This document shows, one piece after another, positions 4,783 through 39,030 of a DNA stretch of 64,000 bases. Under the pieces are notes generated by a model, which was not told the DNA's origin, did no database searches, and saw only the letters and a program-made list of their open reading frames with translations. The stretch lies in assembly GCA_035536185.1 (NCBI GenBank), contig DATLOM010000005.1:667-64666 (forward strand), written 5' to 3'. Every line of letters begins with the position of its first letter. The first letter of the stretch is position 1. The position numbers and the translations under genes were made by a program. The DNA comes from Acidimicrobiales bacterium (GTDB lineage: Bacteria > Actinomycetota > Acidimicrobiia > Acidimicrobiales > GCA-2861595).

Positions 4783-5319
4783 TCAGGCGAGGCGGGCGAG
4801 AATGCCCCGGGCCTCGGCCGCGTCGGCCGCCCGGCGGGCCACCTCGGCCACGTCGCGAAGGGTGGCCAGCTCATGACGGCGGAGGAGATCCTTCACCTCC
4901 CCGAGGGCGCCCGGCACCATCGACAGCTCCCGCACGCCGAGCCCTACCAGGGCGGCCGCCACCTCGGGGTCGCTGGCGGTCTCCCCGCGCACGCCCACCC
5001 AGGTGCCGTACTGGTCGGCGTTGGCCACCACGTGGGCGATCAGGTCCAGCACCAGCGGCTCGCACACGTCGGTCAGCTCGGCCACCTCGGCCACCAGGCG
5101 GTCGACAGCGAACAGGTACTGGAGCAAGTCGTTGGTCCCGACCGAGAAGAAGTCGACGTGCGGGGCGATCCGGCCGGCGGCCAGCGCCGCCGACGGCACC
5201 TCGATCGTCACCCCCACCTCCACGCCGTCGAGGGAGACACCCTCGTCACCGGCCACCCGTTCCAGTTCGCTGCGGGCGGCGACAACCTCGTCGACCCGGC
5301 TGACGAGGGGGAACAGCAC
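4783..5319 (-). pseudogene. C-terminal fragment of a PEP-utilizing enzyme (PtsI/Enzyme I-like TIM-barrel tail)
   Basis: The 178 aa match only the last third of Enzyme I (MLFPLVSRVDEV..., VDFFSVGTNDLLQY, GETASDPEV). Only 45 nt separate it from the upstream gene, so the N-terminal two-thirds is absent. Confidence 0.65.
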
Positions 5320-7624: not shown

Positions 7625-7640
7625 CTCGACCGATGAGCTG

Positions 7641-8438
7641 TCAGCCACGCACGAAGGCCGCGATCGCCTCGAACGTCTCGTCGGGCGCGCTGAGGTTCGG
7701 GCAGTGCCCGGTGGCATCGAGCATCACGAGCTTCGCGTCGGGAATCGTGTCCCGGACGAACTCGCCGACGGCGACCGGTGCGATGGCGTCGTTGGTGCAC
7801 TGCAGCACGAGCGTGGGCGTAGGAACCTTGGCGAGGTCGGCGCGGTTGTCCGACAGGAATGTGACCCCGGCAAACTGGCGGGCGATGTCGGGATCGCTCC
7901 GGCAGAAGCTGGCGGTGAGCTCTTCACCCAGCTCGGGCCGGTCGGGAGCCCCCATGATCACCGGCGCCATGGCACTGGACCATCCCAGGTAGTTGCTCTC
8001 CAGCGACTCGAGCAGCTCCTCGATGTCGTCCCTGGCGAAGCCGCCGAGGTAGGAGCCTTCGTCGATGTAGCGGGGGGACGGGCCCACGAGGACGAGCTTG
8101 GCGAAGAGGTCCGGCTCCTTGATCGCCGCCAGTACCCCCATCATCGAAGCGACGGAATGGCCGACGAAGATGACGTCACTGAGGTCAAGCTCGTGGCAGA
8201 TGTCGACCACGTCGTCGGCGTAGGCGTGGAGTGAGGTGTAGCGCCCAGGGTCGTACGACGACGTGTCCGAGCCTCCGGCGCCCATGTGGTCGAACAGCAC
8301 CACCTTGAAGTCGGGTTCGAAGCGCGGCGCCACGAAGCGCCACATGTTCTGGTCGCACCCGAAGCCATGGGCGAACAACATGGCCTGGCCGTCCGGCCAC
8401 CCGGAGATCACGAGGTTGTGGCGTTCTGCAACACCCAT
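7641..8438 (-). CDS. RsbQ / D14 / KAI2-family alpha/beta hydrolase
   Basis: 265 aa with nucleophile elbow GHSVASMMG, Asp in CTNDAIAP and His in ATGHCPNLSAP. It ends 16 nt before the PP2C gene. Confidence 0.85.
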   Translation of the reverse strand: MGVAERHNLVISGWPDGQAMLFAHGFGCDQNMWRFVAPRFEPDFKVVLFDHMGAGGSDTSSYDPGRYTSLHAYADDVVDICHELDLSDVIFVGHSVASMMGVLAAIKEPDLFAKLVLVGPSPRYIDEGSYLGGFARDDIEELLESLESNYLGWSSAMAPVIMGAPDRPELGEELTASFCRSDPDIARQFAGVTFLSDNRADLAKVPTPTLVLQCTNDAIAPVAVGEFVRDTIPDAKLVMLDATGHCPNLSAPDETFEAIAAFVRG

Positions 8439-10809: not shown

Positions 10810-11676
10810 CTACGCCGCCGCGCCCATGCGCCGAACCAGGCGCAGAAGGCGTCTGCTGGCGTCAGCGGGCTCCAGGTGCACGCGGGAACCGTGGCCGGGC
10901 AGCACCCAGGAGAACGACGTCGTCTCGGCCAGCCTGGCCAGCGACCGGGTCTGCGCCTCCCACGAGTACCAGCACGCCCCCCTGAAAGCCACCAGGTCCT
11001 GGCGCTGGTGGCTCCACGCCAGCGAGTCGCCGGTGAACAGCCACCTGGCGTCCACGGCGAAGGCAACCGATCCCCTGGTGTGGCCCGGGACGGGGATGGC
11101 GACAACGCCGTCGGCGACGACCACCGGATCGTCCCCCACCAGCACGTCGGTGGCGTACGGCGCGGAGTTGCCGTCCGCCTCGTGGATCCACACCCGGGCG
11201 CCGTAGCGCTGTGCCCAACGTGCAGCGTCGGCCACGTCGTCGCGGTGCGTGAGCAGCACGTGGGCCACGCCGCCGAGGTCGTCCAGAGGCCCGGTCAGCT
11301 TCGTGGTGAACCGGGGGGAGTCGACCATCAGGTTCCCGTCGGGCCGCAACACAAGGTAGCTGGTGGCCCCGAACGACGCCTCGCTGGTGTACCCCAGGTC
11401 GTAGACGGGGCCGTCCACCGCCAGCGGGTAGAGCCCCTGCGGTCGGGCCGGCTGCGGCGACCGGCCTATGGAGGCGGTCGGGCACGCCTCCGCCGCCAAC
11501 CAGGCGCGCCGCTCCGGGCCGGCACCGTCGGGCTGCACCTCCACCACCGTCTGCTCCCCGTCGATGACGAAGATCTCCGGGGCCAGGTCGCGGCAGGTAC
11601 CGCAGTCGATGCACCGGGTGTCCACGAACCACGGGCCGTCGGCGTTGCCCGGGTGGCGCTGGTCGATGCGGGCCAC
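10810..11676 (-). CDS. Ferredoxin-like domain fused to an MBL-fold metallo-hydrolase
   Basis: N-terminal CIDCGTC...ACP cluster, then the MBL motif LLTHRDDVAD and later PGHTRGS. Confidence 0.8.
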   Translation of the reverse strand: MARIDQRHPGNADGPWFVDTRCIDCGTCRDLAPEIFVIDGEQTVVEVQPDGAGPERRAWLAAEACPTASIGRSPQPARPQGLYPLAVDGPVYDLGYTSEASFGATSYLVLRPDGNLMVDSPRFTTKLTGPLDDLGGVAHVLLTHRDDVADAARWAQRYGARVWIHEADGNSAPYATDVLVGDDPVVVADGVVAIPVPGHTRGSVAFAVDARWLFTGDSLAWSHQRQDLVAFRGACWYSWEAQTRSLARLAETTSFSWVLPGHGSRVHLEPADASRRLLRLVRRMGAAA

Positions 11677-11809
11677 GGCTCAAAGGTTACGGCGGCTACA
11701 GCTGCTAGTCCGCGCCCCGGTCGTCGTGGCGCTGCCCCACAAGCGCCATCCGCTGCCCAGGAGGCAGAGCGCGCCGCCGGAGTTTGACCTGTACCAGTGC
11801 CGGGGTGAC

Positions 11810-11815
11810 TATAAT
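11810..11815 (+). promoter_or_regulatory. TATAAT -10 box, 7 nt upstream of the antitoxin ATG (leaderless-type promoter)
   Basis: ggtgacTATAATagtagtcATG. There is no room for a Shine-Dalgarno sequence. Confidence 0.5.
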
Positions 11816-11822
11816 AGTAGTC

Positions 11823-12095
11823 ATGTCCCAAACGCTGCCGCTGGCCGAGATCAAGGCCCACCTCTCCGAGATCGTCGATCGGGTCGAGAGGGAGCACGAG
11901 CGCATCGTCCTCACCAGGAACGGCCGTCCGGCAGCAGTGATCATGAGCCCTGCAGATCTGGAGGCTCTCGAGGACACGCTCGACCTGTTGTCCGACCCGC
12001 AGGCGTTGAAGGAGATCGAAGCGGCTCGCGACGACGCGGCAAAGGGCAGGGTGGTGGACGCCGACGAGCTCCGGGCGAAGTACCTGAACAAGTGA
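11823..12095 (+). CDS. Phd/YefM-family antitoxin
   Basis: MSQTLPLAEIKAHLSEIVDRVEREHERIVLTRNGRPAAVIMS is a classic Phd/YefM N-terminus. Confidence 0.9.
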   Translation: MSQTLPLAEIKAHLSEIVDRVEREHERIVLTRNGRPAAVIMSPADLEALEDTLDLLSDPQALKEIEAARDDAAKGRVVDADELRAKYLNK

Positions 12096-12367
12096 CGGAG
12101 CCGGAGCTCCGGCTTGTCGTCACCGCTACCGCGGAGCGAGCGCTGGGCCGCCTGCCGGAAGGAGCTGCCGCGGCGATCGTCGAGTTCATGGTGGGAGCTC
12201 TGGTGGGCGCTCCTAGGCGTGTGGGGCACCCACTCCAGCGGGAGCTCGGTGGTCTATGGGCGGCGCGGCGAGGCCCGTACCGTGTCGTGTACGAGATCGA
12301 CGACAAGGCTGGTGTCGTGACGGTGTTCCGCATCGATCACCGAGCTGACGTCTACCGCTCGCACTGA
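12092..12367 (+). CDS. RelE/ParE-family toxin
   Basis: GTGA start/stop overlap with the antitoxin. The C-terminus YRVVYEIDDKAGVVTVFRIDHRADVY is typical of RelE/ParE. Confidence 0.85.
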   Translation: MTEPELRLVVTATAERALGRLPEGAAAAIVEFMVGALVGAPRRVGHPLQRELGGLWAARRGPYRVVYEIDDKAGVVTVFRIDHRADVYRSH

Positions 12368-24486: not shown

Positions 24487-24998
24487 GCCGGTCTCGCAGA
24501 GCGGCGGCGAGTCGGGATCGGTTCCCCAACCCCGCGAGCAGCCCGTGGTGGACCAGGGCCCATCGCTCGCCCGTCCTCGAGTGAGCCCCGTCGGCCGAGA
24601 TTCAGCGCTCCTTGCCCTTCGCTTGCATGGTCGGCACGAGCCCTCGCCCGGCCTATCCGCTCATGCCGCTCATGCCGGCAACATGTGGGCGCGAGGCGGC
24701 AAGATCGGACGCCTCGTTGCCGTCCCCACCGGTCCACCCGCGTTCCCCCTCTGCAGAAGTGTGACCGTACAGGTCAAGTATCAGCCCGTCAAGGTGCTTC
24801 TCCCTATTTCTCTCCGTGGTCATTGTGGCCGTGAGGAGCTATGAAGCGCCCTCAGCCCTTCATCCGTGGGGCGGGCGGCGGTGGCCAGATCGGCCGACGC
24901 GGTTGAGCACCAGGGCCCGACGGTGGCCACCGCCTCGCCTGCATGGTGGGCAGCACATGTGAGTAGGTGTCCAACGTTCGCGCCTTTGGCGCGATCAG

Positions 24999-25070
24999 CG
25001 CCCTCGGCAGGACTCGAACCTGCGCCACCGGCTCCGGAGGCCGGTGCTCTATCCGCTGAGCTACGAGGGC
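24999..25070 (-). tRNA. tRNA-Arg (anticodon CCG)
   Basis: The reverse complement GCCCTCG-TA-GCTC-AGCGGATA-GAGC-A-CCGGC-CTCCGGA-GCCGG-TGGC-GCAGG-TTCGAGT-CCTGC-CGAGGGC-G folds as a cloverleaf. CCA is not encoded. Confidence 0.9.
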
Positions 25071-25505: not shown

Positions 25506-27299
25506 TCACATCCGGTCCGGTGCCTCGATCCCCAGCAGGTCCAGACCGTGGGCCAGCACCCGCGCCGTCACGTCGCACAGCGCCAGCCGGGATCTGCGCT
25601 GCTCGTCGGAATCGGCCCGCAGGATCGGGCAGTGCTCGTAGAACGTGGTGAAGGCGCTGGCCAGGTCGAACAGGTAGGTGCACAGCCGGTGGGGCTGTAG
25701 CAGCTCCGCCGTCTGCTGCACGGCGCCGTCGAAGGCCAGCAACTGCAGGGCCAACGCCCGCTCCGTGGGCTCCTCGATGACCACGGCGCCGGCGTCCGCA
25801 CCCGAGCCCGCACCGGAGCCCACACCCGAGCCAGCCACGGATCCTTCCTCCCCGGCCCGCCGGAAGATGGAGCAGATGCGGGCCCGGGCGTACTGCAGGT
25901 ACGGGGCGGTGTTGCCGTCGAACGACAGCATCCGGTCCCAGTCGAAGGCGTAGTCCCGCAGCCGGTCGTTGGAGAGGTCGGCGTACTTGAGGGCGCCGAT
26001 GCCCACCGCGTGGGCCACGGCTGAACGCTCCGAAATGTCCAGCTCCCTGCCGTTCTCGGTGACCACGGCCTGGGCCCGCTCCACCGCCTCCTCCACCAGG
26101 TCGGCCAGCTTGACGGTCCCGCCCGTGCGGGTTTTGAACGGCCGCCCGTCCGGCCCCAGCACAGTCCCGAAAGCCACGTGCTCGGCCCGCCGGTCGCCGT
26201 CCAGCCAGCCCGCCTGCTCGGCGACGGCGAAGACCATGGCGAAGTGCTGGCTCTGGCGGGCGTCCACCACGTAGGCGATCCGGCGGGCATCCAGATCCCG
26301 CACCCGGAAGCGGAGGGCGGTGAGGTCGGTGGCGTCGTAGCCGTAGCCGCCGTCGCTCTTGCGCACGATCAGGGGCAGCGGCTGGCCCTCGCGGCCCACG
26401 AAACCGGGCGGGAAGGCGCACAGGGCGCCCTGGTCCACGACGAGCAGCCCCAGCTTCTGCAGCTCCTCGACCGTCTCGCCGAGCAGGGAGTTGTAGAAGC
26501 TCTCCCCCCGGAGGTCCTCGGGCACCAGGCACACGCCCAGCCGCTCGTACACCGCCTGAAAATGACGCTGGGACTCGGCCACTAGCGCCCGCCACAGCGC
26601 CAGTGTCGTCTCGTCGCCACCCTGCAGCGTGACGACGCGGGCCCGGGCCCGGTCGGCGAAAGCAGTGTCGGCCTCGAACTTGGTGCGGGCCTCCTGGTAA
26701 AAGGCGTCGAGGTCCCCGATCGAAGGGCTCTGCCCACCCGCTTCGGCACCGAGATCCACCAGGTGCTCGATGAGCATGCCGAAGGGCGTGCCCCAGTCGC
26801 CCAGGTGGTTCTGGCGGATGACCCGATGGCCGACGGCGCCGAGGGTGCGGACCAGGGCGTCGCCGATCACCGTGCTGCGCAGGTGGCCGACGTGCATCTC
26901 CTTGGCCACGTTGGGCCCCGAGTAGTCGACCACCACCGTCTCGGGCGTATCCGCCTGGGCGATGCCCAGCATTTCGTCGGCAGCCACCGCGGTGACGGCG
27001 GCGGCCAGATGGTCGGCCCGCATGGTGAGGTTGATGAACCCCGGGCCCGCCACCTCGACCTTCTCGCACAGCGCGCCGACGTCGAGCACGGCGACGATGG
27101 CCTGGGCCACGTCTCTCGGGCTGCTCTTCAGGAGCCGGGCCAGCCCCATGGCCACGTTGGCCTGGTAGTCCCCGAACTGCGGTTGCTGGGAGCGCCGGAG
27201 CTGGGGATCGGTGCCGGCGTAATCCGGGCCGAAAGCCTCGGTGATGGCGGCTTCGAAGGGCGCCAGCAGGGTGCGCAGGGGGTCGGCCATCTGCATCAT
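25506..27299 (-). CDS. argS: Arginine--tRNA ligase
   Basis: HVGHLRS (HIGH) motif and full-length class-I ArgS architecture. A short Gly/Ser-rich insert (GSVAGSGVGSGAGSGADAG) is present. Confidence 0.95.
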   Translation of the reverse strand: MMQMADPLRTLLAPFEAAITEAFGPDYAGTDPQLRRSQQPQFGDYQANVAMGLARLLKSSPRDVAQAIVAVLDVGALCEKVEVAGPGFINLTMRADHLAAAVTAVAADEMLGIAQADTPETVVVDYSGPNVAKEMHVGHLRSTVIGDALVRTLGAVGHRVIRQNHLGDWGTPFGMLIEHLVDLGAEAGGQSPSIGDLDAFYQEARTKFEADTAFADRARARVVTLQGGDETTLALWRALVAESQRHFQAVYERLGVCLVPEDLRGESFYNSLLGETVEELQKLGLLVVDQGALCAFPPGFVGREGQPLPLIVRKSDGGYGYDATDLTALRFRVRDLDARRIAYVVDARQSQHFAMVFAVAEQAGWLDGDRRAEHVAFGTVLGPDGRPFKTRTGGTVKLADLVEEAVERAQAVVTENGRELDISERSAVAHAVGIGALKYADLSNDRLRDYAFDWDRMLSFDGNTAPYLQYARARICSIFRRAGEEGSVAGSGVGSGAGSGADAGAVVIEEPTERALALQLLAFDGAVQQTAELLQPHRLCTYLFDLASAFTTFYEHCPILRADSDEQRRSRLALCDVTARVLAHGLDLLGIEAPDRM

Positions 27300-27339
27300 C
27301 GTCGGGGGTCGAGGGCGGTAGCGTCAAAAGATCGCCCCT

Positions 27340-28623
27340 TTGCCGCCGCACCTCCTGCCGCTGACGGCCCGCACCGGGCCCGGTGGGCGCCTCTCCATCG
27401 GAGGGCTCGACGTGCTCGATCTGGCCGAGGAGCACGGCACCCCCCTCTTCCTCTACGACGAGGAGCACCTGCGCCGGCGTTGCCGCGAAGCAGTGGGCGC
27501 CTTCGGCGACGGGGTGGCCTATGCGTCGAAGGCCTTCCTGTGCCGGGCCATGGCCGCCCTGGTCGCCGAGGAGGGCATGTGCATCGACGTCTCCACCGCG
27601 GGGGAGCTGCACGTCGCCCTCTCCGCCGGCGTACCCGCCGACCGGCTCGTGCTGCACGGCAACAACAAGTCCGAGGAGGAGCTGGCCCGGGCCATCGAGA
27701 TCGGCGTGGGGCGCATCGTGGTCGACTCCTTCGACGAGATCGACCTCCTCCACAAGCTGGCCGGCGGGCACGGCCAGACCAGCACCTCTCCCCGCCGGCC
27801 GCAGGCGATCGTCAGGGTGACGCCGGGCGTCGAGGCCCACACCCACGAGTACGTGATGACCGGTCAGGAGGACACCAAGTTCGGGTTCAGCATCGCCAGC
27901 GGGGCAGCGGCGAGAGCCGTGGCCGCGCTGGCCGCGTCGACCGAGGTGGAGCTGGTCGGCATCCACGCCCACATCGGCAGCCAGGTGTTCGCCCTCGCCT
28001 CCTTCGTGAAGGCGGTGGAGGTGCTGGCGCCCTTCTTCGTCCCCCTGGGGCTTCCCGAGCTGTGCATCGGTGGCGGCCTCGGCGTGCCCTACGTGGAGGG
28101 AGAGGAGGCACCCACCATCACCGAATGGGCCGCCACCGTCCACTCTGCCTGCGCGGCGGCCGGCATCCCCTCTGACGTCCGCATCACGGCCGAGCCGGGT
28201 CGGGCCATCGCCGCCGCCGCCGGCCTCACGCTTTACCGGGTGGGCACCATCAAGCACCTCCCCGACGTCCGCACCTACGTGGCGGTCGACGGCGGCATGA
28301 GCGACAATCCTCGCCCCGTCCTCTACGGCAGCGGCTACGAGGCCTTCCTGCCCCGGGCCACTGACGCCGAGCGCCCGTTGCGGGCCACCGTGGTGGGCAA
28401 GCACTGCGAATCCGGCGACCTCCTCGTCCGCGACGCCTCCCTGCCCGCCGACCTGGCCGTGGGCGACGTCCTGGCCACTCCGGTGGCCGGGGCCTACGGC
28501 CACTCCATGGCCTCCAACTACAACAAGGTCACCCGCCCGCCGGTGCTGTTCGTGTCCGGCGGCGATGTCCGGGTGGTGGTGCGCCGGGAGACACTCGACG
28601 ACCTGCTCCGCCTCGACCAGTAG
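27340..28623 (+). CDS. lysA: Diaminopimelate decarboxylase
   Basis: PLP-fold type III decarboxylase (YASKAF, HIGSQ, GGGLGVPY, CESGD). The apparent TTG start is uncertain. Confidence 0.9.
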   Translation: MPPHLLPLTARTGPGGRLSIGGLDVLDLAEEHGTPLFLYDEEHLRRRCREAVGAFGDGVAYASKAFLCRAMAALVAEEGMCIDVSTAGELHVALSAGVPADRLVLHGNNKSEEELARAIEIGVGRIVVDSFDEIDLLHKLAGGHGQTSTSPRRPQAIVRVTPGVEAHTHEYVMTGQEDTKFGFSIASGAAARAVAALAASTEVELVGIHAHIGSQVFALASFVKAVEVLAPFFVPLGLPELCIGGGLGVPYVEGEEAPTITEWAATVHSACAAAGIPSDVRITAEPGRAIAAAAGLTLYRVGTIKHLPDVRTYVAVDGGMSDNPRPVLYGSGYEAFLPRATDAERPLRATVVGKHCESGDLLVRDASLPADLAVGDVLATPVAGAYGHSMASNYNKVTRPPVLFVSGGDVRVVVRRETLDDLLRLDQ

Positions 28624-28643
28624 CACCGCGGTTACCTTTGCCC

Positions 28644-29930
28644 ATGGACGCGGTGCGGGTGGGAGTGCTCGGGTGCGGCAACGTCGGGTCCGCCCTCGTG
28701 AGGCTGTTGACCGCTGACGGCGCCGGCATCGCCGAGCGCACCGGCGTGCGCCTGGAGGTGACTCGGGTAGCGGTGCGGGATCCGTCGAGGGACCGCAACG
28801 TCCATCTCCCTCCCGGCTGCCTCACCGACGACGCCGCCGGCCTGGTCACCGATCCGGAGGTCGACGTGGTGGTCGAGCTCATCGGCGGCATCGACCCCGC
28901 CCGGGGGCTCGTGCGCGCCGCGCTGGAGGCGGGCAGGCCGGTGATCACGGCCAACAAGGAGCTGCTGGCCAATGCCGGCGCCGAGCTGTTCGAGGTGGCG
29001 GCCCGCTCCAAGGTCGACCTGCTCTACGAGGCGGCGGTGGCCGGCGGCATACCCCTCATCCGCCCCCTGCGGGAGTCGCTGGCCGGCGAGCGCATCACCC
29101 GCGTCATGGGGATCGTCAACGGCACGACCAACTACATCCTCACCCGGATGACCGAGGAAGGCGCCACCTACGCCGACGCGCTGGCCGAGGCCCAGGCGCT
29201 GGGTTTCGCCGAGAGCGACCCGACCGCCGACGTCGAGGGCTTCGACGCCGCAGCCAAGGCGGCCATCCTCGCCACCATCGCCTTCGGTGGCCTCGTCGTC
29301 GCCGGCGACGTGTCCCGGGAGGGGATCACCGGCATCACCGCCGCCGACATCGCCTTCGCCGGCCGGCTGGGCTACGTGGTCAAGCTCCTGGCCGTGGCCG
29401 AGCGGGCCGACAAGGACGAGGAGGTGGCGGTCCGGGTGCACCCTGCCATGATCCCGTCCACCCACCCGCTGGCCGCCGTGCGGGGATCGTTCAACGCCGT
29501 GTTCATCGAAGGCGACGCCGTGGGCGAGCTCATGCTCTACGGCCGGGGTGCGGGGGGGATGCCCACGGCCAGCGCCGTCCTCGGAGACCTCATCGACGCC
29601 GCCCACAACCTGCGGACCGGAGGCAGTGGCCGCACCACCACCATGGCGCCGGCGCGCATCCGCCCGATGGACGAGCTGTTCTCGCAGTACTACCTGAACA
29701 TGGAGGTCGTCGACCGCCCCGGAGTGCTGGCCGCCGTATCGACGGTGACGGCCGGGCACGGGGTCTCCCTCGCCTCCTTCGAGCAGGAGGGCCTGGGCGA
29801 CGACGCCCGCATGGTCTTCATCACCCACAAGGCCCGGGAGAGGGACATCCAGGACACCCTGGAGGACCTGCGCCAGCTCGACGTCGTGAAGCGGGTGGGC
29901 AGCCTGCTGCGGGTCATCGGCGACGAATGA
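28644..29930 (+). CDS. hom: Homoserine dehydrogenase
   Basis: [15 protein letters not shown]-binding site, NGTTNYIL, and a C-terminal ACT domain. Confidence 0.9.
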
Positions 29931-30967
29931 GGGCCTGGCGGGGGCTCATCGAGGAGTACAGGGAGTTCCTGCCCGTCTCCGACGCCACCCCCGTGGTCAC
30001 CCTGCAGGAGGGGGCCACGCCCCTGCTCCCGGCGCCCCGGCTGTCCGAGCGCGTGGGGGCCCAGGTGTGGCTCAAGTACGAGGGCCTCAACCCAACGGGA
30101 TCGTTCAAGGACCGGGGCATGACGCTGGCCATCTCCAAGGCCCGGGAGGAGGGGGCCGAGGCCGTCGTCTGCGCCTCCACCGGCAACACCTCGGCTTCGG
30201 CCGCCGCCTACGCCGCCCGCGCCGGGCTCACCTGCGGAGTGCTCATACCCGCGGGCCACATCGCCCTGGGAAAGCTGGCCCAGGCCCTGGTCCACGGCGC
30301 CCGTGTGCTGCAGATCAGGGGGAACTTCGACCACGCCCTCACCATCGTCCGTGACCTGGGGGACCGCGCACCTGTCACCGTCGTCAACTCGATCAACCCT
30401 TACCGCATCGAGGGGCAGAAGACGGGCGCCTTCGAGGTGGTCGACGCCCTGGGCGAGGCGCCCGACGTGCACTGCATACCGGTGGGCAACGCCGGCAACA
30501 TCTGCGCCTACTGGAAGGGCTACCTCGAGTACCGGGAGGCCGGCCGGTCCACCAGGCTGCCGGCCATGATGGGTTTCCAGGCCGCCGGCGCCGCCCCCAT
30601 CGTCGCCGGCCACCCGATCGAGAACCCCGAGACGATCGCCACCGCCATCCGAATCGGCAACCCGGCCTCCTGGTACGGCGCCACCGCCGCGGCCAGCGAG
30701 TCCGGCGGCGGCATCAGCGCCGTCACCGACGAGGAGATCCTCGCCGCCTACCGCTTCCTGGCCACCGAGGAGTCGGTGTTCTGCGAGCCGGCGTCGGCGG
30801 CGTCGGTGGCGGGGCTGATGAAGGTCGGTGTGCCGGAGGGCTCAACGGTGGTGTGCGTGCTGACCGGCCACGGCCTGAAGGACCCCGACATCGCCATCAG
30901 CCAGATCGCCGTCCCCACCCCGGTGGACGCCGACTACGACGCCATCCGCAAGGAGCTGGGCCTCTGA
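29927..30967 (+). CDS. thrC: Threonine synthase
   Basis: ATGA overlap with hom. PLP lysine motif [11 protein letters not shown] and [14 protein letters not shown]. Confidence 0.95.
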
Positions 30968-31004
30968 GCCGGCGGCCGCGCCGGCTGCCCGCGATACTGC
31001 TGGG

Positions 31005-31397
31005 ATGGGAGATCGCAACGTGCTCGGAGGCGAGCTGGAGCCCTGCAGCACCGACCCTCTGACGGGCTGGCATCGCGACGGGTGCTGCCGCACCGGGCCG
31101 GAGGACCGTGGCCGCCACACCATCTGCGCGGTCATCACCTCGGAGTTCCTGGAGCACCAGCGTTCGATCGGGAACGACCTCAGCACACCGAGGCCCGAGT
31201 TCCGTTTCCCCGGCCTCGTCCCCGGCGACCGGTGGTGCGTCACCGCGGTCAACTGGCTGAGGGCCCACGAGGACGGCGCCGCCGCCTTCGTGGTGCTGGC
31301 CTCGACCCACGAGCAGACCCTCCAGATCGCCCCCCTCGAGGTGCTCCGGGAGCACGCCGTCGACGTCCCCCCCGGCCCGGGGATCCTGGAGGACTGA
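31005..31397 (+). CDS. DUF2237-family protein
   Basis: NVLGGELEPCSTDPLTGWHRDGCCRTGPEDRGRHTICAV matches the DUF2237 signature as I remember it. Confidence 0.7.
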   Translation: MGDRNVLGGELEPCSTDPLTGWHRDGCCRTGPEDRGRHTICAVITSEFLEHQRSIGNDLSTPRPEFRFPGLVPGDRWCVTAVNWLRAHEDGAAAFVVLASTHEQTLQIAPLEVLREHAVDVPPGPGILED

Positions 31398-31438
31398 CCA
31401 CCGAGGCCTTTCGAGCACGGGCTGGGCCTACAGTGGCG

Positions 31439-32854
31439 ATGTCACGTCCCCTCGCCGATAGGTCCCATGTGCGGATCCTCGTGCTGATCGACGGCGAGCA
31501 CTACCCCGCAGTGGTTCGGGCCGCCATCGACCGCCTCCCCTCTCGTTTCCCCGGCACGACGGTGGTTGCCGCCGCGCTGCTGGGCGGTTCGGAGAAGCTG
31601 GTGGGTGCCGGCGCCACCCGACAGCTGGAGGCGCAGCTGGGGATCCCGGTGGTCACGGGTGCCACCGCCGACGAGGCGCTGATGGCAGGGCTGGAGGTGG
31701 CGCATCCGGACCTGGTGTACGACCTGGCCGACGAGCCGGTTCTCGATGCCCGGACCCGCCTGCGCCTCGTGGCCCGGGTGCTGGCCGCCGGAGTGGCCTA
31801 CGAGGGAGCCGACTTCAGGCTCTCCCCGCCCCCACGGCCCCGGGTCGCCACCAAGCCTTCCCTCGCCGTAATCGGCACTGGGAAGCGGACGGGGAAGACG
31901 GCGGTCTCCGCTGAGCTGGCCCGCCTCCTGCGCCGGCGGGGAGCTCCGCCCGTGATCGTCGCCATGGGGAGGGGCGGTCCCGAGGAGCCGGAGGTCGTCG
32001 ACCCGGCCAGCTTCGACCTCACCGCCGAAGGGCTCGTGGCCCTGGCCGACAGCGGCCGCCACGCGGCCAGCGACCACCTGGAGGACGCCATGATGTCGGG
32101 CGCCGTGTCCATCGGCACCCGCCGATGCGGCGGCGGCCTGGCCGGCACCCCCGCCGACGACACCTTCGCGGCCGGCGTGCAGCTCGCCAACGACCGCCCC
32201 GAGCCGTTCATGGTTCTCGAGGGCAGCGGGCAGGCCATTCCGCCCGTGCACGCCGATGCCACGGTGCTGGTGATCCCCGGATCGGCCGACCCGGAGCTGG
32301 TCGCCGGCTACCTCGGCGCGTACCGCCTGTTGCTCGCCGACATGATTGTGATTAGCATGGCGGTGACGTCGCTGGCCGCTTCGGTACCCCGCGCCAACTT
32401 CGAGCGGGACATCCAGAGGCTGCTGCAAGGAGCAGCGGCCAGGCCCCGCCCGATCGTTAGGGTCACGCTCCGACCAACCCCCCTCTCCCCGATCTCCGGT
32501 CGACGAGTCTTTTATGCGACAACTGCCCCCGCTTCCGCTAGAGCACACCTGGCGGCGCACCTCGAGCACGAACACGGAGCGAAGGTCACGGGCATCTCGC
32601 ACCAACTCGCCAACCGTCCGCTCCTCCTCGCCGATCTCGAAGCGGCCGCCGATGCCGAAGTACTCGTCGTGGAGCTGAAGGCTGCCGCGGTGGATGTGGC
32701 CGCCCGCTTCGCCCTCGAGAGAGGCATCGAGGTCGTGTTCTGCGACAACCGGATCGAGACCCTCGGCGGTGACGGCACCTTCGAGGAGCTCGGGCTGGCT
32801 GCTGCCGACCTCGCCGCCGGACGTTTCTCGGCCACCATGGAACCGGCCCCATGA
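31439..32854 (+). CDS. Cyclic 2,3-diphosphoglycerate synthetase-like protein
   Basis: 471 aa. The P-loop-like VIGTGKRTGKTAVS and overall layout resemble archaeal cDPG synthetases. The ATG at 31439 was chosen because the longer listed ORF overlaps DUF2237 out of frame. Confidence 0.65.
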   Translation: MSRPLADRSHVRILVLIDGEHYPAVVRAAIDRLPSRFPGTTVVAAALLGGSEKLVGAGATRQLEAQLGIPVVTGATADEALMAGLEVAHPDLVYDLADEPVLDARTRLRLVARVLAAGVAYEGADFRLSPPPRPRVATKPSLAVIGTGKRTGKTAVSAELARLLRRRGAPPVIVAMGRGGPEEPEVVDPASFDLTAEGLVALADSGRHAASDHLEDAMMSGAVSIGTRRCGGGLAGTPADDTFAAGVQLANDRPEPFMVLEGSGQAIPPVHADATVLVIPGSADPELVAGYLGAYRLLLADMIVISMAVTSLAASVPRANFERDIQRLLQGAAARPRPIVRVTLRPTPLSPISGRRVFYATTAPASARAHLAAHLEHEHGAKVTGISHQLANRPLLLADLEAAADAEVLVVELKAAAVDVAARFALERGIEVVFCDNRIETLGGDGTFEELGLAAADLAAGRFSATMEPAP

Positions 32855-33861
32855 CCACCAGCAAACCCGGCTCGGAGCGCTCCCACCCACGCCATGTCGT
32901 CATCGACGACAAGGACTACGAGCTTCCCTACTCCAAGGGTCTCATGGCCTCGCGGATCATGGCCACCGGTCTGGCCCCGGCCCGCGCCTTCCACGTGGCC
33001 GAGGTGGTCGAGGTCCGCCTGGCCAGCGACCCCGACGGCCGCGTCACCCTTCGGGAGCTGAACGACCTGGTGCTGGCGGTCCTCACCGAGGAGGTGGGGG
33101 AGCGCTACGCCGCCTCCTTCGCCAAGTGGCAGCTGGTGGCGCAACTCGACATCCCTCTCGTGGTGCTCATCGGCGGCGCCACCGGGGTCGGCAAGTCGAC
33201 CATCGCCACCATGCTGGCCAGCCGCCTGGGCATGACCCGGGTGATCCCCACCGACGCCATCCGTGAGGTCATGCGGTCGATGATCACCCAGGGCCTGATG
33301 CCCACTCTCCACACATCTTCGTTCGACGCCGCCCGCCTCCTGCGGTACCCGGTCCCGCGGGGAGCCGACCCCACGATCATCGGCTTCAGGGAGCAGGCGG
33401 CGGCGGTGGCCGTCGGGATCGAGGCCCTCATCGCCCGGGCCGCCGACGAGGGGACGGACCTCATCCTGGAGGGCGCCCACCTCGTACCCGGCTTCGTGGA
33501 CGAGGCCCGGTTCAAGGGCCGGGCCGTGGTGGTCCCGCTGGTGGTTACGGTGGACGACGAGGAGGAGCACCGGAGCCACTTCCTGGTCCGGGCCCACGAG
33601 GTCCGAAGTCGGCCCTCCGACAGGTACCTCGACGCCTTCGACAACATCCGCAAGCAGCAGAAGTACGTCAAGTCCATGGCGGCCGAGCACGGCATCCCCA
33701 TAGTCCCCTCGTACAACCTCGACGCCGCCCTGTCCCAGGTCGTCGACCTGGTCGTCAACCAGGCCTTCGAGGCCGTTCCCAAGACCAATCCCGAGCCGTC
33801 CGAAGTGGCGGCTCCCGACCAGTCCCCCCTCGTGGGTGGACGCAAGAGAGGTGCACGATGA
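32851..33861 (+). CDS. 2-phosphoglycerate kinase-like protein (ATP-cone + P-loop kinase)
   Basis: ATGA overlap with the preceding gene. N-terminal ATP-cone-like VVIDDKDYELPYSKGLMASRI and Walker A GGATGVGKST. Confidence 0.7.
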   Translation: MTTSKPGSERSHPRHVVIDDKDYELPYSKGLMASRIMATGLAPARAFHVAEVVEVRLASDPDGRVTLRELNDLVLAVLTEEVGERYAASFAKWQLVAQLDIPLVVLIGGATGVGKSTIATMLASRLGMTRVIPTDAIREVMRSMITQGLMPTLHTSSFDAARLLRYPVPRGADPTIIGFREQAAAVAVGIEALIARAADEGTDLILEGAHLVPGFVDEARFKGRAVVVPLVVTVDDEEEHRSHFLVRAHEVRSRPSDRYLDAFDNIRKQQKYVKSMAAEHGIPIVPSYNLDAALSQVVDLVVNQAFEAVPKTNPEPSEVAAPDQSPLVGGRKRGAR

Positions 33862-35738
33862 GCGGAGAGCAGCAGCTCGAGCGCTCGGTACTCGAAGCCA
33901 AGGAACGCGAGGAGCTTCAGGCCATTGCCGAAGCCCTCGGCGTCAAGGCTTCTTCCCGCGCCAGCAAGGCCACCCTGGTGGGCCAGATCCTCAAGGCCAC
34001 CGGCGTCGAGGAGCCGACCAACGGCGCCGCCCCGTCCGCGGGCCGGCGGCGCCAGCCGCGGGCCGCCGCCACGGCCGAGGCAAACAGCGCCCGGGAGGAG
34101 GGCCCCTCGGACGCGCCCCTCGAGACGTGGCCCGGCGGATCCGGCGAGGCACCGGCCACGGAGCCGGAGCCCCAGCTCATGGTCGGCTCCGACGAGGATG
34201 ACGATGACGACGACGAGCCCGGCGACCGGAGCGGGGCCGGACCGGCTTCGCCCGAGGTGGCCGCCCGATCAGGTCCTGAGGCCAACGGCGCCAGCGCCTC
34301 TGCCTCCGCCGAGACGGAGGCGCCCGCCGGCGAAGACGGCGATCGGGCCTCCTCGTCCACGTCGTTCCGCACTAACCCGCAGCGGGAGAACCACCATGGC
34401 AACGACCGGGGCCATCAGCGCCCCTGGGATGCCCCAGGTGGAGGGGGCCAGGCCCAGCAGACCCAGCCGGGCCAGCCGGGCCAGCCCGACTCGGCCAACC
34501 GCCGGCGTCGCCGGCGCGGACGCGACCGCGACCAGCGCCCCGACCAGCGTTCCGACCGGGACCTGCAGGGCGCCAGCCAGGACCAGCAGTTCCAGGGCGA
34601 GCCGGTGCCGGTGTCGGGCCTGTTGGACCTGAACGACCAGGGCTACGGGTTCCTGCGGGCAAAGGGCTACCTGCCCAGCCCCGACGACGCCTACGTGTCC
34701 ATCAGCCAGGTCCGGCGCTTCGCCCTGCGCAAGGGTGACTACGTGGAGGGCGCCTGCCGCCCCGCCGGCAGCACGGAGAAGTACCCCGCCCTGCTGCGCA
34801 TCGACACGGTGAGCGGGCTCACCCCCGACGAGGCCCGCAGCCGTCCCCGTTTCGAGGACCTCACGCCGCTGTTCCCGGACGAGAAGCTGCGCCTGGAGAT
34901 ACCCGGCGACAGCGCCAACATGGTCTCGCGCATCGTCGACCTCATCTCACCCATCGGCAAGGGCCAGCGCGGCCTGATCGTCTCGCCCCCCAAGGCGGGG
35001 AAGACCACGGTGCTCAAGCAGATCGCCCACTCCATCGAGGTCAACAACCCCGACGTGCACCTCATGGTCCTCCTGGTGGACGAGCGCCCGGAGGAGGTCA
35101 CCGACATGCGCCGGTCGGTGAAGGGCGAGGTCATGGCCTCCACCTTCGACCGTCCGGCCGAGGAGCACACCGCCCTCGCCGAGCTGGCCATCGACCGGGC
35201 CCGGCGCCTGGCCGAGCTGGGCAAGGACGTGGTGATCGTGCTCGACGGCATCACCCGCCTGGCCCGGGCCTACAACCTGGCCGCGCCGGCCACTGGCCGC
35301 ATCATGGCCGGCGGCATCGACACCGGCGCCCTCTACCCGCCCAAGAAGTTCTTCGGAGCGGCCCGCAACCTCGAGGAGGGCGGGTCCCTCACCATCCTTG
35401 CTACGGCACTGGTGGAGACCAACAACCGCATGGACGAGGTCATCTTCGAGGAGTTCAAGGGCACCGGCAACATGGAGCTGCGCCTCGACCGCAAGCTGGC
35501 CGAGCGGCGGATCTACCCGGCCATCGACGTCAACGCCAGCTCCACCCGTCACGAGGAGCTGCTCTTCGAGCGCAACCAGCTCCAGCAGGTGTGGAAGCTG
35601 CGCCGGGTGCTGAACGCTTTGGCCAGTGAGGGAAGCGCGGCGAACAGCCTGGAGCTCTTGATGGACAAGATCAAGGCCACCAGGAGCAACGACGAGTTCC
35701 TGTCGGAGATAGCCAAGGGACCGGCGGCGGGCGTCTGA
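33858..35738 (+). CDS. rho: Transcription termination factor Rho with long disordered N-terminal insertion
   Basis: ATGA overlap with the preceding gene. Rho N-domain, Arg/Asp/Gly/Gln-rich insert, Walker A PPKAGKT and a conserved C-terminal RecA-like core. Confidence 0.95.
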
Positions 35739-35769
35739 CCCTTGACCAGCAGGTAACCTCGGAGGCGAT

Positions 35770-35991
35770 ATGAAGACCGACATCCACCCCGACTACGTCG
35801 AGGCCAAGGTGAAGTGCTCCTGCGGGAACACCTTCACGACGCACTCCACCAAGGCCGACCTGCACATCGAGCTCTGCAACGAGTGCCATCCCTTCTACAC
35901 CGGCAAGCAGAAGCTGGTGGACACCGGCGGCCGCGTCGAGCGCTTCGAGAAGCGCTACGGCAAGCGCCCGTCAAAGAAGCCGGCCGAGTAG
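35770..35991 (+). CDS. rpmE: 50S ribosomal protein L31 (Zn-ribbon type)
   Basis: MKTDIHPDY...CSCGN...[13 protein letters not shown]. Confidence 0.95.
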
Positions 35992-36072
35992 CGCCCCCAT
36001 CTCGCTGGAGTAGTACCCGCCATCGATTCCGCCCGCCGGCAAGGCCTCTACGCGGCCAAGCTGCGGGCCCTG

Positions 36073-37044
36073 GTGGCGGAGCATCTCGGCGCCGCCGCTG
36101 ATGGGCCGGACGGCGCTGACGGCACCGACGCCGGCACGTTCCCAGGTGGGGCGGTCCTGCGGCGGGGGAGCACCGGCTGGGTGCTGGCCGAGGAGCGCCC
36201 GGAGAGGGCGCTGGGCGGGGCGCTCGTGTGGGCCGCGCGGTCTCACATCGAGCAGCTCCACGTCCTGGCCGAAGGCGAGGAAGCCGCCGGAGTCCTGGCC
36301 AGGCGCGCCGCCGCCTTTCGCCGCCCGCCCCAGGTGTGGACGATCTCGGGCCGCACCGTGACGCCGGCCGTCCCCGCGCCGCCTCTCTCCGAAGAGCCAC
36401 CCACGGACGCCCACCTCGCCTTCGCCGCCATGTTCGCCGCCGCCGGCGCTGAGGCCGTGGTGGAACACGGCGTGCTCGTGGCCGAGGTCCTGGGCCTGGA
36501 GGTGGGCCGGGTGATCGACGGCCGCCTCGACGTCGGTGTCGGGAAGCACGACCGTGAGGCCCAGCGGCTGGTGCACGTCGACCGGCCGCCCGAGGAGGCG
36601 CTGAGGGCGGCGGTAGCGGCCGTGCGTGAGGTACGCCGGGCCGGTGCTCCGGTCCACGAGATGAACCGGCTGGCCCACGAACGATGGCTGCGTTCGGTCG
36701 TCATGGCCAGCCCGCAGATGGTCGGCGCCGCATCCCTGGCGCCGCTGCCCGAACCGGTGAGCCGCCAGGGCCTGCGGATGGCGGCACCGGCGCCGGCAGC
36801 CGGACTCGACGCCGATGGCCGCCCGCTCGTGGTGGTGTGCTCGACGGGCATCGACGTGGACCTCGTTCCTACTGCGGCCGACGCCCGCCTCGGTCATGAC
36901 CCCACCGCCCGGCTGGTCATCGTCGTGCCCGAGGCCGACGACCACCCCGTCACGCGGGACCTGGCCGCGCAGCTCGCCGATCCCGCCGAGGTGGTCGCCA
37001 TCACCGGCGACTGGAGAGACCTTCCCGTACCAGCCTCCCGTTGA
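36073..37044 (+). CDS. Hypothetical protein between rpmE and prfA
   Basis: 323 aa with coherent Ala/Val/Leu-rich coding composition and a GTG start. No domain recognised. Confidence 0.55.
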   Translation: MAEHLGAAADGPDGADGTDAGTFPGGAVLRRGSTGWVLAEERPERALGGALVWAARSHIEQLHVLAEGEEAAGVLARRAAAFRRPPQVWTISGRTVTPAVPAPPLSEEPPTDAHLAFAAMFAAAGAEAVVEHGVLVAEVLGLEVGRVIDGRLDVGVGKHDREAQRLVHVDRPPEEALRAAVAAVREVRRAGAPVHEMNRLAHERWLRSVVMASPQMVGAASLAPLPEPVSRQGLRMAAPAPAAGLDADGRPLVVVCSTGIDVDLVPTAADARLGHDPTARLVIVVPEADDHPVTRDLAAQLADPAEVVAITGDWRDLPVPASR

Positions 37045-37090
37045 CGGCCGACCCTGCCACACCGGCAGGCGCCGGGCGTAGCCTGGACTC

Positions 37091-38152
37091 ATGCTCGAGC
37101 GACTGGCCGGACTGGAGGATGAGTACGCCCGGCTGAGCGAGCGGATGAACGATCCCGCCGTCCTCACCGACCAGCACGCCCTGCGCGACACCGGCCGGCG
37201 GCTCAAGGAGCTCGAGCCCATCGTCACTGCCTTCCGGGCCTACCGCGAGGCCAGGGAGAACCTGTCCGCCGGCCAGGAGATGCTCGGGGACGCCACGGGC
37301 GGCGACCGTGAGCTCCTCGCCACCGAGGTGGCCGAGCTGACCGACGAGATCGCCCGGATGGAGTCCGAGCTGGAGGTCCTGCTCCTGCCCAAGGGCGAGA
37401 ACGACGACCGCAACGTCATCGTGGAGATCCGGGGAGCCGAGGGCGGCGAGGAGGCGAACCTCTTCGCCAAGGACCTGTTCGACATGTACCTGCGTTACGC
37501 CGACAAGATGGGCTGGAAGCACGAGATGCTCGGCGCCGACCCTTCGGACAAGGGCGGGTTCAACGAGGTCAGCTTCATGGTCAAGGGCGACGGGGTGTGG
37601 AGCCACCTGAAGCACGAAGGCGGCCCCCACCGGGTGCAACGGGTGCCGGTCACCGAGTCGCAGGGCCGCATCCACACCAGCTCGGCCACCGTCACCGTGC
37701 TGCCCGAGGCCGAGGAGGTCGACGTCCACCTCGACCCCAACGACCTGAAGATCGACGTCTACCGCTCCACCGGCCCCGGCGGCCAGTCGGTGAACACCAC
37801 CGACTCCGCGGTGCGGATAACCCACCTCCCGACCGGCATCGTCGTGGCCATGCAGGACGAGAAGAGCCAGATCCAGAACCGGGCCAAGGCCCTGGTGGTG
37901 CTGCGGGCCCGCCTGCTCAAGGCCGAGCAGGACCGCCAGGCCAACGAAGCATCAGCCCAGCGCAAGAGCCAGGTCGGTGGCGGCGGGCGCTCGGAGAAGA
38001 TCCGCACGTACAACTTCAAGGAGAACCGGGTCACCGACCACCGGATCGGCCTCACCCTGCACAAGCTCGACAAGGTGCTGATGGGCGAGCTCGACGACCT
38101 GGTCGACGCCCTGCTCGCCGAGGAGCGCACCCGTCAGCTGCGGGGGGAGTGA
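37091..38152 (+). CDS. prfA: Peptide chain release factor 1
   Basis: PEA-type recognition motif (VLPEAEEVD) and the GGQ motif (STGPGGQSVNTTDSAVRITH). Confidence 0.95.
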   Translation: MLERLAGLEDEYARLSERMNDPAVLTDQHALRDTGRRLKELEPIVTAFRAYREARENLSAGQEMLGDATGGDRELLATEVAELTDEIARMESELEVLLLPKGENDDRNVIVEIRGAEGGEEANLFAKDLFDMYLRYADKMGWKHEMLGADPSDKGGFNEVSFMVKGDGVWSHLKHEGGPHRVQRVPVTESQGRIHTSSATVTVLPEAEEVDVHLDPNDLKIDVYRSTGPGGQSVNTTDSAVRITHLPTGIVVAMQDEKSQIQNRAKALVVLRARLLKAEQDRQANEASAQRKSQVGGGGRSEKIRTYNFKENRVTDHRIGLTLHKLDKVLMGELDDLVDALLAEERTRQLRGE

Positions 38153-38157
38153 GGGCG

Positions 38158-39030
38158 GTGGGCACGGGCGCCGGCACCGGCACCGTGAGCTGGCGGGAGC
38201 TGCTGGCCGAGGCCGCCACCCGTCTGGGGTCCGCCACCGAGGCCCGTCGGATAGTGGAGAGGGCGTCGGGAATGGAGGGCGCCGAGCTCCACCTCGGGCT
38301 GGACCAACCGGTGACGGAGCGGACCGCCGCCCACTTCGAGGCCATGCTGCAACGCCGGGAGGCCGGCGAGCCGCTGCAGTACGTGCTCGGCTCGTGGGGC
38401 TTCCGGTCTCTCGACCTGTTCGTCGACAGGCGGGTGCTGATCCCCAGGCCGGAGACGGAAACGGTCGTCGGGTTCGCCCTGGCGGAGCTGGCTCGGCTCG
38501 CTCCCCGGCCCCACCCGAGGGTGGTCGATCTCGGCACCGGCTCCGGAGCCATCGCCCTTTCCATCGCCACCGAGGTCTCCGGCGCCGAGGTGTGGGCCAC
38601 CGAGCGCTCACCCGACGCGCTGGCCGTGGCCCGGGCCAACCTGGCCGGGACCGGCATGGCCGGCAGGAACGTCCGCCTGGCCGAGGGATCGTGGTTCGCC
38701 GCCCTCCCGCCGATGCTGCGGGGCCAGGTCCACCTGATCGTGTCCAACCCGCCCTACGTGGGCGAGCGCGAGGTGCCCGACCTTCCTCCCGAAGTGGCCC
38801 GCTGGGAGCCCCGCTCCGCCCTGGTCGCCGGGCCCACGGGCCTGGAGCAGGTGGAGGCCATCGTCGAAGAGGCGCCTCGCTGGTTGACCAGGCCCGGCTC
38901 CCTCGTCGTGGAGATCGCCCCCCACCAGGCCCAGGCGGCCATCGCCTGCGCCCTCCGATCGAGCTTCTCCGCCGCCGAGGTCAAACCCGACCTCGCCGGC
39001 CGCCTCCGCGCCCTCGTAGCCCGCCTGTGA
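38158..39030 (+). CDS. prmC: Release-factor glutamine N5-methyltransferase
   Basis: DLGTGSGAIALS SAM motif and the NPPY catalytic motif. The GTG start is approximate. Confidence 0.85.
   Translation: MGTGAGTGTVSWRELLAEAATRLGSATEARRIVERASGMEGAELHLGLDQPVTERTAAHFEAMLQRREAGEPLQYVLGSWGFRSLDLFVDRRVLIPRPETETVVGFALAELARLAPRPHPRVVDLGTGSGAIALSIATEVSGAEVWATERSPDALAVARANLAGTGMAGRNVRLAEGSWFAALPPMLRGQVHLIVSNPPYVGEREVPDLPPEVARWEPRSALVAGPTGLEQVEAIVEEAPRWLTRPGSLVVEIAPHQAQAAIACALRSSFSAAEVKPDLAGRLRALVARL

Follow-up and report, generated by a model that had tools for sequence, protein, structure and literature searches.

Homologs of the archaeal cyclic 2,3-diphosphoglycerate pathway enzymes encoded next to rho in Acidimicrobiales: a candidate bacterial module

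The enzymes of cyclic 2,3-diphosphoglycerate (cDPG) formation have been characterised in the archaeon Methanothermus fervidus, and here we describe homologs of both, the cDPG synthetase (cDPGS) and the 2-phosphoglycerate kinase (2PGK), encoded between thrC and rho in a 64,000-nucleotide stretch of DNA from an Acidimicrobiales bacterium (contig DATLOM010000005.1), hereafter the window. In the M. fervidus cDPGS (PDB 8ORK/8ORU), the substrate 2,3-diphosphoglycerate (2,3-DPG) is bound by K145, R146 and, from the partner subunit, E45, with K46 of that subunit also shown; Mg2+ is bound by T150 and D208, the phosphate charges are shielded by K145, R146, K149 and K406, and ATP is contacted by E305 (adenosine/ribose), P335, T353 and E404 (PMC10690619). 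The same work proposes that the reaction proceeds via a 2-pyrophosphate intermediate. Reversible ATP formation by this enzyme and the proposal that cDPG is a store of carbon and phosphate are covered in a review (PMC1224877), which also records rapid turnover of cDPG and lists the compound in the mesophile Methanobrevibacter smithii, so that cDPG is not strictly a solute of hyperthermophiles. Two further described systems are relevant to the locus, namely ArcE (TK2200) of Thermococcus kodakarensis, an arginine synthetase with 'low' similarity to cDPGS (PMC11032458), and HomK/ThrB2 (BT2402, TIGR02535), an ApgM-like homoserine phosphotransferase that bears on the question of thrB only. On the evidence set out below, we hold with moderate confidence that the two genes of the window encode a working bacterial version of the two-step cDPG pathway and that, in this clade, they are translationally coupled to rho.

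Homologs of cDPGS and 2PGK and their pairing

A search of the PDB with the 471-amino acid (aa) protein returned three entries, all of which are cyclic 2,3-diphosphoglycerate synthetases. The match to 8ORK/8ORU (E 3.7e-94, about 40% identity over 425 residues) is full-length, with residues 12-438 aligning to residues 6-430 of 8ORK, and 9SXB was matched at E 2e-88. The protein shares with the M. fervidus enzyme its length class, its two-domain layout and the Walker A sequence GTGKRxGKT, which reads GTGKRTGKT in the window and fits the pattern GxxGxGK[T/S], with the equivalents of K145/R146, K149 and T150 inside it. When the window protein was aligned with M. fervidus cDPGS, with 9SXB and with homologs from related loci (52 sequences counted), E45, K46, K145, R146, K149, T150, D208, E404 and K406 were identical in the window protein and invariant in 52/52 sequences, so that every residue reported to contact 2,3-DPG, Mg2+ or phosphate is identical to that of M. 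fervidus; T353 was likewise kept in the window protein, and 50 of the 52 sequences have it. The published P335 had no unambiguous aligned position, and a nearby P337 is kept in the window protein. A second check, conducted on 66 full-length representatives of 50%-identity clusters reaching down to about 31% identity, revealed that the ligand residues are kept by nearly all of them. In the most divergent representatives (P0291, P0370 and P0380), the DGEH and/or EK motifs near the N-terminus are changed, indicating that these positions can vary when function drifts. By this alignment, the 471-aa protein is a true homolog of archaeal cDPGS, and the original prediction, which had noted the resemblance to cDPGS from the sequence and pointed to the P-loop VIGTGKRTGKTAVS, was borne out on both counts, the P-loop being present in the alignment to the PDB match and the open reading frame (ORF) being placed in the family by its full-length match and kept ligand residues.

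The 336-aa protein encoded directly downstream carries the P-loop GGATGVGKST and finds its best matches, end to end, in the NCBIfam 2PGK models NF003259 and NF008994 (COG2074), whereas the mevalonate-3-phosphate 5-kinase model gave 85 bits only, far below the 2PGK scores. Residues 17-91 at its N-terminus matched the ATP-cone domain PF03477 at E 0.012 and 16.5 bits (gathering score 25.8), and two homologs at about 75% identity carry a precomputed PF03477. The predicted combination of an ATP-cone with a 2PGK-like P-loop kinase therefore held for the kinase, for which the 2PGK models are the best full-length matches, and is less secure for the ATP-cone at that score. An AlphaFold2 model of the kinase (predicted local distance difference test score 79) adopts a P-loop fold resembling that of the nucleoside monophosphate (NMP) kinases, and its top Foldseek matches were UMP/CMP, adenylate, shikimate and gluconate kinases, a generic NMP-kinase fold that does not inform on the substrate or the ATP-cone. 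A PDB sequence search with the kinase gave no match, and no 2PGK structure has been solved. The corresponding kinase of an archaeal metagenome-assembled genome (MAG; locus L019), to which the window kinase is about 34% identical, reaches 346.7 bits against NF003259 and passes its cut-off of 343. The window kinase shares with 2PGK the end-to-end model match, the NMP-kinase-like fold and, as in L019, the place directly downstream of cDPGS, to which a possible ATP-cone-like N-terminal domain may be added. The 336-aa protein is a true homolog of archaeal 2PGK. An Acidimicrobiales MAG has deposited proteins that are 100% identical to the two window proteins, VNA57_00705 and VNA57_00710, both annotated as 'hypothetical protein'.

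In the proposed pathway, the P-loop kinase would convert 2-phosphoglycerate and ATP into 2,3-DPG, from which the cDPGS homolog, probably a dimer like the archaeal enzyme, would form cDPG, ADP and Pi at the expense of a second ATP, closing an intramolecular pyrophosphate ring by way of the 2-pyrophosphate intermediate proposed for the archaeal reaction.

For comparison, we assembled related loci (L001 to L060), 52 from a scan of species-representative genomes and eight from homolog look-ups, and mapped the window proteins onto 56 of them. At the 90% identity level, the cDPGS homolog matches at least 7,900 clusters, and among 1.84 billion representatives at 50% identity it matches 964 at E<=1e-3 and 194 at E<=1e-30. 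Named members of the family belong to Actinomycetota, Cloacimonadota, Eremiobacterota and one Asgard archaeon, and the JGI and NCBI pipelines already name thousands of such proteins cDPGS or 2PGK. The term 'archaeal-type', applied to the pathway in the original prediction, is thus true of the characterised examples but not of the family, which has many members, most of those in public data being bacterial, and which pipelines already label cDPGS/2PGK. Since homologs are numerous and routinely auto-annotated, and since the Pfam CpgS_N family exists, the pair represents a known family and not a new system.

Of the 51 sequences that extend far enough past cDPGS, 48 (counting a truncated copy in L056) have 2PGK as the very next gene, and these span Acidimicrobiia, Gaiellales, Thermoleophilia and the archaeal MAG L019, and the cDPGS/2PGK junction is tight in nearly all related loci. 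The order thrC-(…)-cDPGS-2PGK-rho, with no thrB, is shared by the loci most similar to the window, namely L001, L002 and L053 at 83-87% identity and, at about 70%, L054 and L055. In Gaiellales and Thermoleophilia, some pairs are found between hom and rho and others at different places. The three exceptions to the pairing are L007, with a decayed kinase remnant, and two Clostridia loci. In a neighbour-joining tree the window grouped with Acidimicrobiia and then with other Actinomycetota, roughly following taxonomy, and the GC content of the pair matches its flanks; a recent horizontal transfer was rejected on these two grounds, there being no sign of recent import. The pair thus has the appearance of an old, position-conserved Actinomycetota module with an intact active site and largely vertical inheritance.

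Some individual loci depart from this pattern. In L007, an Egibacteraceae MAG, a 116-aa 2PGK remnant (5731-6081) that keeps the sequence LPYSKGLMA lies between an intact cDPGS and rho and looks like kinase decay. In L056 the first ~156 residues of 2PGK, directly after cDPGS, are fused in frame to ribosomal protein S15 (11473-12249), with pnp following, which is either a rearrangement or an assembly chimera.

Several observations weigh against a functional cDPG pathway. Unlike curated 2PGKs, the window kinase scores below both model cut-offs, with 287.7 bits over residues 14-309 for NF003259 (cut-off 343) and 298.2 bits for NF008994 (cut-off 603). At the position of E305, the cDPGS homologs of the window, L001 and L002, and no others, have Val, whereas 47 of the 52 sequences have Glu or Asp, and this change may point to altered nucleotide binding in the window's clade. 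The 471-aa protein gave no family match in local Pfam and NCBIfam scans, only sub-threshold P-loop matches, because the local Pfam copy predates the CpgS_N model; the identical deposited protein carries a precomputed PF27272 (CpgS_N). According to PMC10690619, cDPG is exclusive to thermophilic methanogens, and our literature search retrieved no report of bacterial cDPG or of a characterised bacterial cDPGS or 2PGK. Furthermore, the two Clostridia MAGs, L037 (4932-6266) and L047 (9995-11335), carry cDPGS-like genes that keep all signature residues and have no 2PGK neighbour, so that not every member of the family need work in a cDPG pathway. In L047, the flanking genes encode a GntR-type regulator and the binding protein, permease and ATPase of an ABC transporter, which suggests a different use of the Clostridia genes, for example on an imported substrate; a metagenomic homolog, P0076, also carries an SBP_bac_11 domain.

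These points leave room for neofunctionalised paralogs that would keep the fold and the ATP chemistry but act on another substrate, either another phosphorylated hydroxy acid or in an ATP-forming reverse reaction, without making cDPG, an explanation that we consider unlikely. ArcE provides a precedent, since this distant cDPGS homolog of the same superfamily catalyses a reaction of the same form (substrate + ATP <-> product + ADP + Pi) and demonstrates that the fold can change its substrate; COG2074, in turn, includes mevalonate-3-phosphate 5-kinase, and the sub-cut-off kinase scores and the Val at E305 point in the same direction. The setting also differs from that of the M. fervidus enzyme, the window host belonging to a mesophilic, high-GC soil lineage with the gene in a unit with rho, whereas cDPG is known only from methanogens. 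Against a changed substrate, the contacts to 2,3-DPG seen in the crystal structure are all invariant, although P0291, P0370 and P0380 show that the DGEH and EK positions can change, and both the conserved pairing and the identical two-gene arrangement in the archaeal L019 speak against it as well. As for ArcE itself, it sits with arcB/arcC and not with 2PGK, and neither arcB nor arcC is present in the window neighbourhood; identity to true cDPGS is about 40% for the window protein, with the 2,3-DPG contacts kept, whereas only low similarity to cDPGS is reported for ArcE. On similarity and context, it is unlikely that the 471-aa protein is an ArcE. The functional cDPG pathway remains the reading that we prefer.

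Gene order and coupling to rho

On the + strand, the genes are arranged in the order lysA-hom-thrC-DUF2237-cDPGS homolog-2PGK homolog-rho-rpmE-unknown 323-aa gene-prfA (Table 1), followed downstream of prfA by prmC, sua5, rpiB, glyA and the atp operon, in a window with a GC content of ~70%. The five ORFs from thrC to rho are as the original prediction described them, and the two ATGA overlaps that it had read at the cDPGS/2PGK and 2PGK/rho junctions are exactly where it placed them. These stop/start overlaps imply that cDPGS, 2PGK and rho are translationally coupled in the window's clade, such that the module between the threonine genes and rho would form one translationally coupled unit, cDPGS-2PGK-rho, in these Acidimicrobiales. 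L001, L002, L053, L054 and L055 also have this 4-nt overlap between 2PGK and rho, and its retention across 70-87% identity argues for at least co-expression; the earlier claim that the pair is tied to rho is thus sustained, as a tight pair whose translational coupling is supported by overlaps kept in five relatives. The coupling to rho is specific to one clade; elsewhere, 2PGK and rho are kept apart by an fsa/transaldolase gene or by a more extended gap.

A scan of positions 27000-38500 for promoters and terminators returned 0 sites of either kind. This result also counts against the proposed unit, even if it is uninformative in DNA of 70% GC, and it leaves the overlaps as the basis for co-transcription. 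Rfam identified only a tRNA, with no leader or riboswitch near the locus.

The genes may alternatively be conserved for their own sake, with their adjacency to thrC and rho carrying no function, as passengers in a stable actinobacterial block in which the overlap reflects mere compaction. The block lysA-hom-thrC-(thrB/homK)-rho-rpmE-prfA-prmC-sua5 is indeed conserved despite the unrelated functions of its genes, Acidimicrobiales that have no pair keep the rest of it, and 2PGK is split from rho in other lineages. We regard this explanation as quite unlikely, because the 4-nt overlap with rho has been kept over the range of identities given above; besides, it bears on what the linkage means and not on the enzyme function that we favour, with which it can be reconciled.

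Where the fsa/transaldolase gene (TIGR00875, 279 bits) intervenes between 2PGK and rho (L005, L006, L008-L010, L012, L013 and L015), as for instance at L006 12353-13033, it overlaps the 2PGK stop codon and leaves 3 bp between its own end and rho, so that cDPGS, 2PGK and fsa make up a sugar-phosphate trio.

Table 1. Features of the window from lysA to prfA
Feature	Coordinates	Strand	Evidence
lysA	27340-28623	+	ORF; same-order orthologs in related loci carry Orn_DAP_Arg_deC
hom	28638-29930	+	ORF; same-order orthologs in related loci carry Homoserine_dh
thrC (threonine synthase)	29927-30967	+	TIGR00260 323 bits (cut-off 167); PF00291 237 bits
DUF2237 gene, 130 aa	31005-31397	+	PF09996 169 bits
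cpgS-like gene (cDPGS homolog), 471 aa, ATG start	31439-32854	+	PDB sequence matches to cDPGS
ATGA stop/start overlap cDPGS/2PGK	32851-32854	+	Direct sequence reading
2PGK-like P-loop kinase, 336 aa, COG2074 type	32851-33861	+	NCBIfam 2PGK models
ATGA stop/start overlap 2PGK/rho	33858-33861	+	Direct sequence reading
rho, 626 aa	33858-35738	+	TIGR00767 578 bits
rpmE (ribosomal protein L31)	35770-35985	+	tblastn with L053 rpmE, 90% identity
323-aa ORF, conserved, function unassigned	36073-37044	+	Between rpmE and prfA
prfA	37091-38152	+	

The start of thrC overlaps the stop of hom. The DUF2237 gene between thrC and cDPGS was found in the window only and in 0/60 other loci (by tblastn in 56 loci and from gene tables in L057-L060), and in L001, L002 and L053 the spacing from thrC to cDPGS is merely about 55-150 bp; this gene is a window-specific insertion that lies outside the conserved module. 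Rho has the long low-complexity N-terminal insertion typical of Actinomycetota, and its start codon is supported by a Rho_N domain at residues 12-47. The placement of rpmE keeps the canonical rho-rpmE-prfA order. The 323-aa ORF that follows rpmE has no Pfam or NCBIfam match; it occupies the same position in L001 and L053 at about 79-81% identity, and a similar-sized unannotated ORF is found at the equivalent position in L055 and L058.

Two observations concern more distant parts of the window. A 178-aa ORF at 4783-5319 on the - strand matches only the C-terminal half of PEP-utilizers_C (positions 140-291 of 293) and is either a truncated gene or the product of a wrong choice of start codon. 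The segment 20600-25000, which ends at a tRNA-Arg(ccg) (24998-25070), has a lower GC content (about 0.65) and few ORFs with the genome's bias in GC at the third codon position, and it could be a foreign or degraded segment.

Homoserine kinase and the position after thrC

The original prediction had stated that thrC is not followed by a homoserine kinase gene, that the pair occupies the slot of thrB, and that thrB has apparently been lost from this slot. The first statement was confirmed, no thrB being present between thrC and rho in the window. A search of the 64-kb window for thrB or an alternative homoserine kinase likewise found none: tblastn with ThrB and HomK sequences from related loci gave no match (best E 0.37 and 0.11, respectively), no GHMP motif was found in the window, and a Pfam scan of 20 upstream ORFs yielded no homoserine kinase candidate. 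The second statement fell, since 12 Actinomycetota loci show the order hom-thrC-thrB-…-cDPGS-2PGK-(fsa)-rho-rpmE-prfA, in which thrB (235 bits against TIGR00191) is present and the pair lies farther downstream, between thrB and rho.

Within the class, the position after thrC is taken by another gene. In the Acidimicrobiia loci L004 and L056, cDPGS is directly preceded by a gene for an ApgM-type protein that reaches NF003242; the L004 protein also reaches TIGR02535 ('proposed homoserine kinase'). BT2402, the TIGR02535 protein named HomK, complements an E. coli thrB mutant; it is distinguished by a Glu, E299, from the true mutases, which have Lys; and thrB is an unexplained gap in 8% of prototrophs according to GapMind (2026 preprint, 10.1101/2024.10.14.618325). 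The Glu of the sequence HVEASDEAGH aligns opposite the Lys of the solved mutases 3KD8 and 2ZKT, from which we infer that it corresponds to the E299 position of BT2402, and the pattern HVEA[ST]DEAGH was present in 119 of the 120 best homologs, many of them from Acidimicrobiales.

Gene order assigns this position to homK. L057 has the order argS-lysA-hom-thrC-homK-rho-rpmE-prfA, and L058 and L060 have hom-thrC-homK followed by a few unrelated genes and then rho, all three with no cDPGS/2PGK, while L059 reads thrC-homK-ABC(-)-cDPGS-2PGK-rho. As homK thus follows thrC both with the pair (L004, L056 and L059) and without it (L057, L058 and L060), the post-thrC slot in this order is that of homK, and the pair is an independent, optional module located between homK and rho. 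Since a HomK-type gene normally follows thrC in Acidimicrobiales, the absence of thrB is a trait of the class. The third statement accordingly stood in part: thrB is absent from the slot, but the slot is that of homK in Acidimicrobiales, and what the window's clade has lost from the post-thrC position is homK, a non-orthologous replacement of thrB, leaving the pair adjoining thrC.

With regard to these genes in other loci, L055 carries directly after thrC, in a slot with neither thrB nor homK, a 292-aa ORF (7366-8244, +) with no Pfam or NCBIfam match. The HomK-type genes L004 8776-9939, L056 8786-9946, L057 7001-8146 and L059 7001-8179 bear the pipeline label 'cofactor-independent phosphoglycerate mutase', a name that is probably misapplied systematically across Acidimicrobiales. 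The L004 protein passes TIGR02535 by 0.5 bit only, and that of L056 fails TIGR02535 and passes the mutase model.

A more speculative extension, in which homoserine would be phosphorylated in the window's clade by way of the 2PGK-like kinase or its product 2,3-DPG, the kinase (with or without the cDPGS-like protein) replacing homoserine kinase either directly or by supplying 2,3-DPG as donor to a HomK-type transferase, can draw on the pair directly following thrC in a window that lacks thrB and homK, on the pair being directly preceded by homK in L004 and L056, on the phosphoryl donor of HomK being unreported and the protein being derived from phosphoglycerate mutases, and on the thrB gap noted by GapMind, but it is highly unlikely, given that the pair co-occurs with ordinary thrB in 12 loci and lies away from the thr genes in many Gaiellaceae loci, that the sole match of the kinase to the homoserine kinase model covers the P-loop only (19.5 bits, cut-off 197), and that homK follows thrC with no cDPGS/2PGK nearby in L057, L058 and L060, which weakens the donor idea.

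A candidate role for bacterial cDPG

Returning to the cDPG pathway that we favour, the catalytic activities, the co-transcription and the role of the product are inferred from homology and gene arrangement. Thermoprotection is an unlikely role because the host is a mesophile; in such a host, cDPG is more likely to be a reserve of phosphate, carbon or energy or a stress solute, in keeping with the carbon and phosphate storage proposed in PMC1224877. That cDPG is actually made by abundant, mostly uncultured mesophilic soil Actinomycetota (Acidimicrobiia, Gaiellales and Thermoleophilia) as such a reserve or stress solute, its synthesis being co-expressed with the essential terminator Rho in this clade, is put forward as a tentative possibility.

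What is new here is the recognition of a position-conserved Actinomycetota module, its clade-specific coupling to rho, and the explanation of the 'missing thrB' by HomK in the order. Acidimicrobiales use HomK, which narrows the question to where homoserine is phosphorylated in the window's clade. If the enzymes act as their conserved sites suggest, cDPG would be a widespread bacterial metabolite of abundant, little-cultured soil lineages, a homology-based conclusion that would surprise specialists in compatible solutes. Its role would then shift from thermoprotection to the storage of phosphorus, carbon and energy or to general stress protection, and these lineages would offer mesophilic, high-GC sources of enzymes for the biotechnological production of cDPG.

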